A stretch of DNA of 64,000 nt from Eledone cirrhosa (lineage: Eukaryota): positions 239,382,001 through 239,446,000 of the forward strand of contig OZ024742.1 in assembly GCA_964016885.1 (NCBI GenBank), given 5' to 3'. Below the pieces are notes generated by a model, which had not been told where the DNA came from, searched no databases, and worked only from the letters and a program-made list of their open reading frames with translations. Made by a program: the position numbers and the translations under genes. Below, in pieces: positions 31,098 to 42,710 of this stretch; the first letter of the stretch is position 1, and each line of letters begins with the position of its first letter.

Positions 31098-32211
31098 ACA
31101 CACACACACGCGTGCACACACACACACATACATATATATACACATATACATATATATATATATCATCATCATCATTTTACGTCCGCTTTTCCCTGCTTGC
31201 AAGGGTGGGACGGGAACTGATTCTGGCTTGATTTCTACAGCTGGATGCCCTTCCTAACACCAACCTCATTTACAGTGAGTGCTGGGTGCTTTTTTCCATG
31301 GCGCCTACACGACCACTTTACAGTGTGGGCTGGGTGCTTTTTTGCTGTGGCACCTCCACGACCACTTTACAGTGGAATGATAGGGACCCCAGTCCCTATC
31401 ATCTCATTTCTACAGCTAAGTAAACTGGAGCAATGTGAAATAAACTGTCTTGCTCAAGGAAACAACACATATATATATTATATACATATATATATATAGT
31501 AATAATTGTTTCTACTTTAGGCACAAGGCCAGCAATTACCCAGTGCATTACTGGTACTTTATTTTATCGACCCCGTAAGGATGAAAGGCAAAGTCTAGTA
31601 ATAATAATAAATTTGAAGACTAAAATCCAAAGAGGGCTCGATAAGGATAAATATATATCAGATATATAAGAACCGTAGAGCAAATATTTATTAAAATAAT
31701 AGATTAAAGCAGCGATTCTTTGCTTAAACTTTAATCTGTTATTTTAATAAATATATATATATTTATATATATATATATATATATATATATATATATATAT
31801 ATATATAGTAATAATAATAAATTTGAAGACTAAAACCCAAAGAGGGCTCGATAAAATAAATACGTATATAACAAGCGCACACACATACCTACATGTAAAT
31901 ACACAAATGTTCGGAGACAGAAGTCAACCAAAACATGAAGTACACATATACACACACCCTACATACGTACGAACCTGCATACTCACACAGACGCGAAACT
32001 CCCGTATACACATAACCAAACCATATGTACCATAATATATAAAAAATTATACGCCATAACATATACAATCAAATATACGTACGAGAAGGTATACGTACCT
32101 TCACAAAACATACAGGTAATATATACTTACCTATGCAAATAAGTAATGGTATAAACAAAACATATACTTAGCTACCACATCAAGACGTAAAATATCCACG
32201 TATAGATCGTA

Positions 32212-34339
32212 CTATCCGTTAGGGTATAACGTGGGGCTGTAATACAGGAAAGTTTTGTGCAATTTATGTTTACAAGCCGAAATTGCCTCAGATTTTTTGT
32301 TTAAGATGTGGTCTTTGGCGTAGAGTATTTCCAGGGCCTCAGCGGCGCAGAGGTCACATGGTCTTTTATTTCCGTTATACGATCTAGCCCTAGCTAGGAT
32401 CTCCCAGTGTAACTTATATTGGGTGTGGTTGTCTTTTAGACTCCAGATATAAGCTGAAAGTGACGTCATATTCCTTCTTAGAGGGTAACGAAAAGAATGG
32501 GTATGCATGTAAAGACGCTGCTTGAATCTATTGGCAGTTAACCCTATGTAGGCCCTACGGGACGTGGCTGTTTCAACCTTACATTTGTAGACAATGTTAC
32601 TAGAGAGGCATTTCCCGGATAGGGGGCAATCAACCCGATTCCTACAATTACAGTTAGTACTAACTACAGGGTTGCACGTGTTCCTACGGCTAGGTAGTTT
32701 AGCTAAATTTGAAGCTGTGATGTTATGTGCAAGGTTAGGAGTCGTAGAGTAAGAAATTTTAATAGTATTTCTATTAAAACTTTTACTATATTTATGTGTA
32801 GGGGGAAAATGCTTTGTAATAAGGGAAAGAAAGATCTTAGCTAATCGTGTGGCCACCTCCATATTATATGGTGGGTTATACCAACAAATGCGACGGGATC
32901 TATTTCTTCTAGGTCTATTTTCGTACTCTGTATATGCTACCTTATCGACAAATCCACTCCGAGCAAGAGCTTCATTGTAATAAGTGGAATGGTCGTTGAA
33001 AATATGCTCGTTAGTAGATAGACGGGAAAGCCTCAACGAAACGTTTCTTACCAGGTTCTTGGTTATGCTGGCAGGATGGTTGGAGTGCTTACTTATGCAA
33101 TTAAGCGTACCATTCGGCTTTCTATACGGGTAATACAACCCATTCAATAAATTGAGGGTAACGTCGATGTAATTAACGACCGAGAGATTGGCCTCAACCT
33201 GTATAGAGAGGTTGAAGCCTTTAAAGAAGGCTGTGAGTTCTTTTCTGAACCTGTCGCAAGCACGAGGTCCGCACTTAGTCATGGTCAAAAGACCATCATC
33301 ACGGTACAAACCACCGCCCGCGTTGGGGAATTCGTCCTTGATAGAGAAAAGAAGGAAAAGGCCGATAAGATCAGTAACCTCCGCAGAATCGCTGGCGCCC
33401 ATACTCACGTCGAATGGGGTACTATTGGATTTTTTAATCCAAATAGAGTCGTCGAAATTAATCACCGACTTACGGGCATTGAGGATGACATCAACTTCGA
33501 AATCCTTAACCACTGTGAGTGTTTTAGCGAAATTGATAGCTCTAAGGAGAAGTGGTAAAGTGATGGAAGAGTAGTAATTGTTGATGTCGAATTGGATAAA
33601 ACGGCAATGTTCCTTGTTACATATGCCGTTGAACCAATCAATCACCGCGAAAGAATTGTTCCACAGTGCAAGAGGGGCCAAACTTCTAATTTCATGTATA
33701 ATTCTATCAAGAATCGTTTTACTAAGTCTACCTAAATCGGACTTCGTAGGGTTAATAAGCCCAATAGAGGGGTTCGGAAAATTGGATTTGTGATCCTTCA
33801 GGGTAAAGTGGGGGAGAAATAGGGTTCAGAGGTTCGGTCCGGTCCAGGATGTTGAGATCAGAGGTGATTTTAAACCCAGCATCTTTGATTTTATTGATGA
33901 CGCACCGATTAGTTTTACGGTAATCCTTAGTTACAGCATTATGTAGTAGTTGATGGTAAGTACTGCGCTCCACTTGATATAGGTTGCCAGTTTTGTCGGA
34001 ATGGACGTGCACGGCATTAGAATCCTTAATAGAACGAATTCTATTCTTCAGGTCCTGCTGGAAGGAATTGCTCCTATTCCGAAATTTGATACTCCGTATG
34101 AGTTCTAAGACATCATTTTCGAAGGGTAGCAATGCTGGGTTACACAGGGGGTTATTATAGGTTTTAAACCCAAATTTATCCTGTTTGTTGTCTGCTTTTC
34201 GCGGATTATCGAAATAAAAGGCACACCAACGCAACCTTTTAATGAACGCGTCTGTTTTCTGTATCAGGAGTTTTAGGTATGTTTTCCTGCTTGGTACGGG
34301 TATGTTCTTTGTAGAAATATTCAGATATTGTTTCTGCAT
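32212..34339 (-). CDS. Penelope-like RT-GIY-YIG protein, about 708 aa after removing one C in the run at 33810-33814
   Basis: TLKDHK, FIQFDINNYYSSI, MGASDSAEV, GGLYRDDGL, CNCRNRVDCPLSGKCL, IVYKC...YIGLT, CDLC. Confidence 0.92.
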
Positions 34340-34485
34340 GATGAATATAAGTCAATAGAGTGCTCAACCGAGGGAGCCAAATAGTAATAATAATAAATTT
34401 GAAAACTAAAATCCAAAGAGGGCTCGATAAGGATACATATATATCAAATATATAAGAACCATAGAACAAATATTTATTAAAATAA

Positions 34486-34559
34486 CAGATTAAAGTTTAA
34501 GCAAAGAATCGCTGCTTTCACCCTTAACGGGATCTTCTGAAACTAACAAAGTCAATCTG
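34486..34559 (-). ncRNA. Type I hammerhead ribozyme candidate in the PLE pseudo-LTR (core CAGAAGA variant)
   Basis: Minus strand: aguuu-CAGAAGA-ucccguuaagggu-GAAA-gcagcgauucuuugc-UU-aaacu. All three stems pair, plus a distal cagauug/uaaucug helix. Confidence 0.6.
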
Positions 34560-34634
34560 TAAACGCAGAAGTGGATATTTCAAAAAACGTTGCAACCGGA
34601 GGAAGACAGGAAGACGATACTTTGGTTCGTGGAA

Positions 34635-34892
34635 ACGTTCCCTGGCAAAGAACGGGAAAAAACGAATATAATACGTCATTAATAGGAGCGGTGAAAAACA
34701 ATTACGCGCAAAGACAGAACCACGTTTATGGTATAAAAGAGGTCGTAGACTAATGTTCTCTTAGGTGGTTCATAGAGACGTTCTCTGGCAATGAACGAAA
34801 AAACGAAGATAATACGTCATATGTGGAGCGTGGAGAACAATTGCACGCAAAGACAAAACCACGTAAATGGTATAGCAGAAGTCGTAGACTAA
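34635..34892. repeat. Two diverged ~120-bp direct repeats upstream of the PLE ORF
   Basis: acgttc.ctggcaa.gaacg...gtcgtagactaa at about 34635 and 34778. Confidence 0.8.
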
Positions 34893-40922: not shown

Positions 40923-40966
40923 ATGATGTATTAGTTTCAAGCTTATTAGCTATCGTTAGCATCGTA
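40923..40966 (-). ncRNA. Decayed copy of the 41402 hammerhead
   Basis: Core reads CUAACGA and the stem III loop CUAA instead of CUAG. Confidence 0.6.
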
Positions 40967-41401
40967 TACCTTTCTGTCAGATGACTGAACGTCTGAAAGT
41001 ATATACTTTCCTTATGCATATTAACGGCTGAGCAGCCTAGTTTGCATATCGAGTGAGCTAGTCGGCCGGGCATACCGAAAACGATAAATGGAAAAGAATG
41101 AAACGAAATTTCATTTCTCACTCTTAGTACGGCTGATACCTAAATATAATATGTATACGTACATACATATATGTGTACAGACGCACAGTAGTATATATAT
41201 ATACATACATGCACACATTATATTTAGGTATCAGCCGTACTAAGAGTGAGAAATGAAATTTCGTTTCATTCTTTTCCATTTATCGTTTTCGGTATGCCCG
41301 GCCGACTAACTCACTCGATATGCAAATTAGGCTGCTCATCCGTTAATATGCATAAGGAAAGTATATACTTTCAGACGTTCAGTCATCTGACAGAAAGGTA
41401 T

Positions 41402-41444
41402 ACGATGCTGACGATAGCTAATAAGCTTGAAACTAGTACATCGT
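41402..41444 (+). ncRNA. Type I minimal hammerhead ribozyme
   Basis: acgaug-CUGACGA-uagcu aaua agcuu-GAAA-CUAG-UA-caucgu: 6-bp stem I, palindromic CUAG. Confidence 0.88.
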
Positions 41445-42444
41445 TCCTTTGTCAGTGTTGAACAAAAGGACGACGATGGTTACCGAGCACTGTACGGCGT
41501 AATTCGGGCTGTTTGTTTACAACAAACCGAACATTATAATAAATGTTCGGTAAACTGATACGTACATATATATATGTGTGCATGTATGTATATATATACA
41601 TACTACTGTACGTCTGTATACATATATGTATGTACGTATACATACTTATATATATATATATATATATATATATATATATATATATATATATATATATGTG
41701 TGTGTGTGTGTGTGTGTGTGTGTGGTGTGTGTGTGTGTGTGTATGTGTGTATGCAATATATATAAATATACATACACATTTGCTGAATCTCCCTGGGAAT
41801 TTACAAATTTATTCAAATACATATATACACACACACACACATATATATATCTAATCATCATCATCATCACCACTGGTTAGCATGGACAAATGGACGTTGA
41901 TGATGATGATGATGATACACTCATGTTCAAATATGTATGTAACAGTTATTGGCAAATTGTTTAAATTAATGTTTTAAAAAAAATGTTTAAGTGGGTTAGC
42001 TCCCTTAGATTCTGATTGGAAAATATGTAAACAATATCAAATAAAAATGGATTAAGATTCAAGTTAATTTATTGAGAAAAAACGAAGACACAGTGATGTT
42101 GATCTGGAGAGAGTGGTTCCAGTTAATACTTTAATTATTACCAATGTAATCAGGATTTTGTCTAAATCCCAATCAACAAACAAACATGCTTTTTCATATA
42201 GTATGTCGTAAGGTTGTGAGTTCGATTACCGGACCGGGCGATGCGTTATGCCCTTGAGCAAGACACTTTATTTCACGCTGCTCCTTCTACCTGGAGTTGC
42301 GACCGATAGATAGGATTAGCAATTGGAAAGACCAACGGAAACATTGTGGTCCGATTTGACGAAAGTTGATCGTTCCTTTATATATATATATATATATATA
42401 TACAATATATTAACAAATGGAAACTATATTTATAAAACCATATT

Positions 42445-42510
42445 TATTTTATTATACATATTTCAAGGGCCACCAAGGCAAATTATGGTGCGCTTTCATC
42501 AGATAAAATA
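42445..42510 (-). ncRNA. Type I hammerhead, second copy of the 35304 family
   Basis: About 42400-42550 is a diverged inverted copy of about 35260-35418; the core and stems are conserved. Confidence 0.78.
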
Positions 42511-42710
42511 CAATACAGATTAGTTTTATAATTAAATATTGACATACCCTGAAAAAAGTCAACCTTAACGGTTGGAGCTTCCTGGGTAGTGGAGATATTA
42601 CATTTATTGAGGGTGATAGAAAGTTATGATTGAGTATGCAAATGAGTGTCCGAAAAGTTTAAAAGGTAACGGTTTATTTAAATTAAACTGTTGGAAGAAG
42701 GTGATATTAT

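Follow-up and report, generated by a model that had tools for sequence, protein, structure and literature searches.

The cluster of hammerhead ribozyme motifs at 31597-42560 of a 64,000-nt stretch of the genome of Eledone cirrhosa (assembly GCA_964016885.1, contig OZ024742.1, positions 239,382,001 to 239,446,000 of the forward strand; hereafter the window, to which all coordinates refer) is very probably composed of independent insertions of six genome-wide families. In each family the hammerhead lies close to the fixed 3′ end, which borders on (TA)n, and the insertions were all likely copied by the reverse transcriptase (RT) and endonuclease of Hydra-type Penelope-like elements (PLEs). The cluster is ordinary for this genome, being a sample of genome-wide Hydra-type PLE ends and of their likely non-autonomous derivatives. 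An earlier note on the window had taken it for a dense, local set of non-coding, self-cleaving retroelements, gathered around a near-intact PLE and mobilised by PLE machinery.

Hammerhead motifs of the cluster

All eight motifs listed in the earlier note were found where it had placed them, five with a canonical core and three with an altered one. The canonical motifs, assigned to repeat families A-D, are:

35304-35369, plus strand: hammerhead of family A; C3 at 35312, predicted site A35361
35572-35627, plus strand: hammerhead of family B; C3 at 35577, predicted site A35622
39076-39133, minus strand: hammerhead of family C; C3 at 39129, predicted site 39080
41402-41444, plus strand: minimal hammerhead of family D; C3 at 41408, predicted site A41438
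42445-42510, minus strand: hammerhead of family A′; C3 at 42502, predicted site 42453

The CUGANGA...GAAA core and a NUH site are present in 5/5 of them; all five also have stems I and II, and their stem III is self-complementary. A descriptor that demanded the CUGANGA/GAAA core, both stems I and II, and a stem III able to pair with itself gave five matches in 31597-42560, while 0/100 local dinucleotide shuffles gave any. The motifs at 35304 and 42445 belong to two subfamilies, A and A′, of one family (93% identity over 167 nt).

Concerning the altered motifs, 34486(-) had been listed with the type I hammerheads; its core is the non-canonical CAGAAGA (U4A), and its stem III is of the monomer type. 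The motif at 40923(-), described as decayed, is indeed so; it belongs to the inverted arm of the insertion that carries 41402 (arms of 328 nt, 95% identity) and its core shows the change G5A. The motif at 38478(+), considered doubtful, has an altered core with a one-base insertion and a palindromic stem III, and it is a real, decayed member of an older family, E. The core of family E, CUGAAUGA, recurs in 16/22 core matches from 19 other loci; it lacks the seven-base CUGANGA sequence and is thus not a canonical hammerhead. This core equals the A6a insertion, reported to be of low activity (PMC3088659). An Rfam cmscan of the window yielded no hammerhead among the best 150 of 174 matches with E<=10, and its microRNA matches corresponded to inverted repeats.

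Insertion pattern at TA tracts

Homology searches of the genome were run for each family, the best 40 candidates being scored each time, and all six families were spread over many chromosomes. The distance from the predicted site to the start of (TA)5 was 51-55 nt in 29/29 loci of family A, 50-62 nt in 24/24 loci of family B and 125-155 nt in 23/24 loci of family D, and family C showed fixed TA-tract ends, with two end points, in 20/24 loci. The (TA)n borders pointed out previously are in this way confirmed as fixed 3′ ends across families. On the other side, 5′ ends were ragged, an inverted 5′ copy with tail was frequent, and copies on both strands occurred in 10/29 A, 8/24 D, 5/24 C and 5/28 loci of family P, to which the 34486 motif belongs. 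The combination of 5′ truncation, inverted copy, tail and TA targeting is the insertion pattern of PLEs (PMC8557442), and a tail and AT-rich targeting are likewise described in PMC11167929. This pattern, together with the parents bearing an open reading frame (ORF) that were found for P, B and A′, bears out the earlier attribution to PLE machinery.

The insertions that make up the cluster

Apart from the local PLE, considered in a later section, the following insertions were delimited:

35257-35423, plus strand: family A, 167-nt 5′-truncated PLE-type 3′ end with the hammerhead 35304-35369
35430-35680, plus strand: family B, 5′-truncated 3′ end of an autonomous Hydra-type PLE with the hammerhead 35572-35627
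38240-38532, plus strand: family E, end of an old repeat (about 80% identity), 5′ limit approximate, with the decayed hammerhead from 38478
38912-38955, plus strand: inverted 3′ tip of family C, separated by a (TA)n tract from the main copy, which it faces
39018-39817, minus strand: family C, 5′-truncated to 800 nt from an ORF-less unit of about 1,965 nt, with the hammerhead 39076-39133
40304-41231, minus strand: inverted arm of family D, broken by an insert at 40451-40797 and carrying the decayed hammerhead 40923-40965 (G5A)
41218-41654, plus strand: family D, single ORF-less 429-nt unit with the minimal hammerhead 41402-41444
42379-43009, minus strand: family A′, 5′-truncated 3′ end of an autonomous Hydra-type PLE with the hammerhead 42445-42510
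43017-43088, plus strand: inverted "tail" at the 5′ end of the A′ insertion; the same piece occurs in many A loci

The E copy shows a 5-nt duplication directly after the predicted site, the inverted arms of family C around 38912-39063 are perfect over 76 nt, and the A′ insertion is broken by a 190-nt repeat at 42713-42903. The 347-nt insert at 40451-40797 had no copy among the other fetched loci.

Families B and A′ are the ends of autonomous elements. In family B, 5/24 loci extended more than 1.6 kb upstream into a GIY-YIG ORF, RT and endonuclease were both present in 4/4 extended loci, and locus L192 had the complete arrangement of an ORF between two pseudo-long terminal repeats (pseudo-LTRs). 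The A′ insertion at 42445 was colinear with the 3′ untranslated region (UTR) of the ORF-bearing copy L201 up to the ORF, with 88-98% identity, and the A-like copy L062 contained the ORF plus an inverted end.

Families C and D are retrozyme-like, as they consist of ORF-less units (39076 for C, 41402/40923 for D) found in tandem elsewhere. Same-strand motifs of family C were 1,963 and 2,011 nt apart, with tandems in L187 and L202; the longest stop-free frame of the unit was 105 amino acids, and 0/15 loci gave PLE protein matches. The unit of about 1,965 nt falls outside the few hundred bases usual for retrozyme units, and family C is likely a non-autonomous PLE derivative. Family D formed 2.5 tandem 429-nt units in L197 and more than one same-strand copy in 4/24 loci, so that genome-wide it has the short ORF-less tandem unit and the type I hammerhead by which retrozymes are recognized. 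No ORF-bearing parent of C or D was found among the best 40 candidates scored.

The possibility that the cluster is a local population of non-coding retrozymes, mobilised by the neighbouring PLE and yielding circles here, would fit the ORF-less, tandem-forming character of C and D, the frequency of D-type arrays with 310-490-nt units, the above-average local motif density and the derivation of retrozymes from PLE pseudo-LTRs (bioRxiv 10.64898/2026.07.22.740005). Against it, B and A′ are autonomous PLE ends, every family is dispersed over many chromosomes, the ORF of the local PLE is frameshifted, and blastn of A-E against that PLE showed no similarity at E<=0.01. Moreover, the 64-kb window contains no same-family, same-strand pair of motifs, and hence no two consecutive units as a retrozyme requires; circles would need arrays elsewhere. 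We consider this possibility very unlikely. It is largely refuted for B and A′ and as regards the word "local", since the families are genome-wide and share no sequence with the local PLE. The description as non-coding retroelements stands for C and D; it fails for B and A′, and for 34486, which is part of the PLE's own pseudo-LTR.

Stems, covariation and folding

In cross-family alignments the core was invariant while the stems covaried. In an alignment of 14 rows, 12/14 pairs had changed on both sides, and in another of 22 rows, 16/20 pairs; the respective scores were reached by 0/500 shuffles. Covariation in the true registers was 0.76 and 0.62, as compared with 0.03-0.15 in slid controls. 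The rows were hand-picked from descriptor matches requiring the pairing of stems I and II, which biases these counts towards structure and weighs against our interpretation; the stem III palindrome, not required of the rows from outside the window, still holds. In families A-E, stem III cannot form a hairpin and self-pairs between two molecules. Minimum-energy folding gave the full hammerhead fold in 0/8 motifs (z from -2.1 to +0.2), a result that is uninformative for motifs of the dimer type. By their sequence, the motifs of A-D and A′ are type I hammerheads, with predicted sites of cleavage.

Two mismatches recur in stem II. A U-U pair at its base is present in C, D and P, and is already known from other hammerheads (PMC3088659). 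In the A/B/C group and relatives a C-C mismatch follows the third pair (35312-35350, 35577-35610, 39129-39092); one C is invariant, the other is present in at least 90% of the 22 rows, and the neighbouring pairs covary. This mismatch is possibly a tertiary contact. A heterodimer of the A and B motifs, located on the same strand 265 nt apart, was considered and rejected, as their stem I strands mismatch (judged by eye).

The five intact cores, with three of the motifs on the strand of TTC17, the last coding exon of which ends near 15128, might also suggest that the host has retained them for RNA processing, for example to cut a TTC17 read-through transcript. This is extremely improbable: the copies are 93-98% like thousands of others and their intact cores need no selection, 3/8 motifs are altered or decayed, stem III is unable to form a hairpin in A-D, and the cluster lies 16 kb beyond the last TTC17 coding exon. 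Given the position of that exon end, a location of the motifs within a TTC17 intron was rejected.

The local PLE (family P) and its U4A motif

The following parts of family P were recognized:

31596-31746, both strands: end fragment of family P, a separate small insertion in the same (TA)n tract, with the tail on the minus strand and the 3′ half of the motif on the plus strand
31805-32211, minus strand: downstream UTR/pseudo-LTR, about 700 nt with the motif missing, delimited by colinearity with copy L096
32212-34351, minus strand: ORF for RT followed by GIY-YIG endonuclease, split over two frames by a single frameshift near 33790
34382-35259, minus strand: upstream pseudo-LTR with an inverted 5′ fragment
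34485-34560, minus strand: hammerhead-type motif, CAGAAGA (U4A); C3 at 34539, predicted site 34499

The local PLE is near-intact, as had been stated: its defects are the single frameshift and the loss from the downstream pseudo-LTR. The fragment at 31596-31746 is a 114-nt direct repeat of 34382-34495 and gave blast matches to other P copies. The ORF of the window is 96.5% identical to that of L255, a natural intact copy of 713 amino acids; L257 and L258 also contain natural 713-residue ORFs, with RT and C-terminal GIY-YIG endonuclease in a single frame. The P protein displays the motifs RWR, DKT, CNCRNRADC (CxCX5C), CDLC (CxxC) and CKH (CxH), without CCHH, as well as YRDD and VY..YIG. The proteins of B and A′ share RWR and DKT with it, and that of B has the cysteine motifs as well; both align at 33-44% in the comparison of the ORFs with RT and GIY-YIG. 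The two ORF pieces of the window gave no Pfam family match, so the class was assigned by motifs, according to which the local PLE is Hydra-type. The Neptune clade, the first guess for this element, was dropped when the Hydra motifs fitted. P, B and A′ alike were inserted at (TA)n and show 5′ truncation, an inverted copy and the tail. B and A′ also have the canonical hammerhead of the Hydra clade; P is filed as Hydra-like, its pseudo-LTR being without this trait, described as universal in the clade.

Family P is large and recent: among the best 150 of 66,338 first-look candidates for its endonuclease, 150/150 were 96-100% identical. Genome-wide, position 4 of the core is A in 17,754 exact copies of the motif and U in 72, and CUGA was found in 0/41 cores from ORF-bearing P loci (some of which overlap). 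A CUGA-bearing sub-lineage of P was considered and rejected, as the minority of 72/17,826 (0.40%) is close to the frequency of the opposite change in D-type motifs, in which U4 is altered in 119/52,729 (0.23%); with these similar rates both minorities look like ordinary mutation. Of the CUGA copies of P, 6/9 distinct loci examined were at 5′ junctions or beside unrelated sequence. Among the listed contigs of four sequencing runs aligned with the P pseudo-LTR, none differed at the U4 position; as the best of these runs may be the source of the assembly itself, the comparison was given no weight.

The P motif has a U-U pair at the base of stem II, a 4-bp stem III and an extended stem I. One could think that it is not a hammerhead relic, and that it arose by chance or is a differently functioning set of hairpins in the P pseudo-LTR, given its U4A change, a minimum-energy fold that is not a hammerhead and a family too young for a covariation signal. 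We regard this as unlikely: its position matches that of the hammerhead in family B and in the Hydra pseudo-LTRs described in print, it shares the U-U base of stem II with many published Hydra motifs, all its other core positions are canonical, and a further family of this genome combines this architecture with CUGA in the core. A hammerhead relic is thus the preferred reading. A family with a canonical core, a 4-bp monomer-type stem III and the architecture of P was observed in L081 (7808-7860), L085, L075, L191 and L130.

In the full mutagenesis of a type III hammerhead, every single change in the CUGA turn led to low activity (PMC9901934). On this basis the P motif, altered family-wide, is predicted to cut poorly, and P likely spread with a weak ribozyme, as far as activity can be predicted.

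Abundance and density across the genome

As background, a 10-kb stretch was taken at each of 79 preset positions of the 3.0-Gb genome (789,800 nt in all). The descriptor gave 70 matches, about 89 per Mb, against 1, 0 and 0 in three shuffles, and extrapolation to the genome yielded 265,000 canonical motifs (bootstrap 152,000-417,000), or approximately 198,000 without the two array stretches; P motifs add about 87,000, estimated from the same sample. Two tight patterns run on the whole genome found 75,515 cores (reversed control 87) and 52,610 (control 0), the sum of which means at least 128,125 canonical cores (controls 87). The genome-wide density is thus roughly 40-90 motifs per Mb.

The density attributed to the cluster is real only to a mild degree. 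The 64-kb window contains five canonical motifs versus 5.7 expected, and thus is at the genome mean, and the 80 kb flanking it contain six. The level of the cluster (at least six with the P motif counted) was reached in 3/79 preset stretches, the cluster itself having been picked after the fact. Motif counts were overdispersed across stretches (variance/mean 2.1) and tracked TA tracts (rho 0.50), as expected for nested insertion.

Several observations weigh against the interpretation of the cluster as an ordinary sample of PLE-copied ends. The 10-kb cluster has about six times the mean density, five canonical motifs without a tandem array were seen in only 1/79 stretches (L117), and the remaining 54 kb of the window have no canonical motif. 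The correlation with TA tracts is partly circular, as each insertion ends in TA, and 4/24 loci of family C were without a TA tract in the nearest 600 nt. As to the parents, no ORF was reached for subfamily A in an upstream homology of 1.6 kb or more, best-40 scoring may miss parents of C or D if copies with an ORF are rare, and the suggestive endonuclease matches upstream of family E came from only 2/19 loci.

Head-to-tail arrays with units of 310-311, 424, 466 and about 490 nt, bearing an intact minimal hammerhead, were observed in L102 (6600-10000), in L268 (1749-5481) and on further chromosomes, one of them exceeding 30 units. They are textbook non-LTR retrozyme arrays and better candidates for circles than the present locus.

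Literature searches, in which supplements were covered in part, found no report of such abundance in a cephalopod and none of a fixed U4A family; no description of the present families was found either, in line with the suggestion that they may be undescribed. The words "hammerhead" and "ribozyme" are absent from the Octopus vulgaris repeat paper (PMC13282606), and the giant squid paper, in its available part, lists 235 Rfam hammerheads.

Proposed mechanism

It seems reasonable to propose that a partial-tandem parent would be transcribed, and that its protein would nick a (TA)n tract and reverse-transcribe from the 3′ region of the RNA. Most copying would stop early, and only the pseudo-LTR with its hammerhead would remain. 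The TA tracts left by each insertion would attract the next one, giving rise to local nests. The motifs of A-E would cut mainly as dimers within tandem transcripts, and families C and D would likely be non-autonomous passengers. With their palindromic stem III, the single copies at this locus would, by prediction, for the most part be silent relics.

Surroundings of the cluster

Within the cluster there is also a fragment of another element:

35684-38070, plus strand: fragment of a Helitron, a bystander here, whose PIF1 helicase is broken (Pfam PF05970, E=4.5e-52, and PF21530), ends set by eye

This fragment has the 3′ hairpin and CTAG, and a 95% identical copy was seen in L198. At 39810-40281 there is a 271-nt repeat, in which ARAGORN predicts a tRNA-Ser(GGA) at 40109-40182; it shows a partial tandem, a 5′ inversion and a (TA)n end, with no recognisable hammerhead. 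It matched the 79 background stretches 13 times, most of these copies being 5′-truncated and several inverted. It looks like a PLE-mobilised, tRNA-bearing element.

Exons of TTC17 were located in the window at 878-15128 and in L260 (residues 468-866 of the Octopus sinensis protein mapped), a host exon being 90-91% identical to Octopus TTC17. Minisatellites at 15600-16763 and 8032-8664 have periods of 36 and 30 nt (judged from repeated translations). A large satellite with units of about 20 nt occupies 43990-63700, where it alternates with tracts of the (TATAA)n type and with the common 190-nt repeat in inverted copies; its higher-order units are of about 3.1 and 4.1 kb.

Significance

Octopod genomes may be an overlooked and very rich source of hammerhead and retrozyme families, with at least 128,125 canonical cores in the 3.0 Gb studied here versus 126,247 reported in the far larger axolotl genome. 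The function of PLE hammerheads has been called unclear (PMC8557442), and the occurrence of P, with its fixed U4A, beside sister families with perfect cores makes their role testable. The boldest reading of these data is that autonomous P was amplified (at least 17,754 exact ends, an estimated 87,000) with a catalytically crippled U4A hammerhead, and so would prove in nature that PLEs can retrotranspose without self-cleavage, in a genome with one of the densest hammerhead populations recorded (about a quarter million, including large retrozyme arrays). We hold it only tentatively, as somewhat less probable than its contrary. A stable stem III and an extended stem I could compensate for U4A, the perfect core kept by sister autonomous families suggests that cleavage usually matters, and the motif of an Anolis PLE is protein-assisted (PMC11167929), all of which speak against it. 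If true, P would be natural in vivo evidence that PLE retrotransposition does not need self-cleavage.

Comparison with known systems

Hydra PLEs with hammerheads have already been reported from Octopus. The Hydra clade of PLEs with C-terminal endonuclease includes Hydra-1_Obim of Octopus bimaculoides (Craig et al. 2021, PMC8557442), whose hammerhead is canonical in the available part of the supplement; none of the six local motifs equals it. The likeness to this clade extends to RW[K/R], DKT, the CxCX5C linker, the lack of CCHH, the CxxC/CxH around the endonuclease E/N, the (TA)n insertion, the hammerhead near the 3′ end and the U-U at the base of stem II. The differences are that the motifs in the Hydra table seen are all CUGA versus CAGA in P, that the units here have 3.3-4.0 kb versus less than 3 kb in the clade, and that few extra families were reported there, in contrast with the tens of thousands of copies found here.

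The metazoan PLE pseudo-LTR hammerheads (Cervera and de la Peña 2014, PMC4209133) share with the present ones the type I topology, a long stem II, a palindromic stem III, the presence of many families in one genome, the predominance of single truncated copies, and inverted pairs 100-700 bp apart. Most motifs were described there as single, likely truncated PLEs and dependent on dimers. The published counts of 2,000-9,000 per genome are below those obtained here, no cephalopod is among the species covered in the accessible text, and the C-C mismatch after three stem II pairs in A/B/C is unlike the motifs given in it.

Animal non-LTR retrozymes (Cervera and de la Peña 2020, PMC7229834) resemble family D in having an ORF-less tandem unit with a type I hammerhead, and resemble also the related arrays of 310-490-nt units; the U-U mismatch is as in HHR_Amex2 of the axolotl, the genome of which, with its 126,247 motifs, is about nine times larger. 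They differ in that family D is here a monomer with an inverted arm, and that the unit of family C, of about 1,965 nt, exceeds the published range of 51-972 nt. A link between the two kinds of element is provided by Li et al. (2026, bioRxiv 10.64898/2026.07.22.740005), who derive retrozymes from PLE pseudo-LTRs.

Finally, Poseidon PAc of Anolis (Frangieh et al. 2024, PMC11167929) has in common with the present elements the tail beyond the pseudo-LTR and the AT-rich targets. Hammerhead mutants did not impair the insertion of this Anolis PLE in vitro. It belongs to another clade and those mutants were engineered and assayed in vitro, whereas P would be a natural case in vivo.

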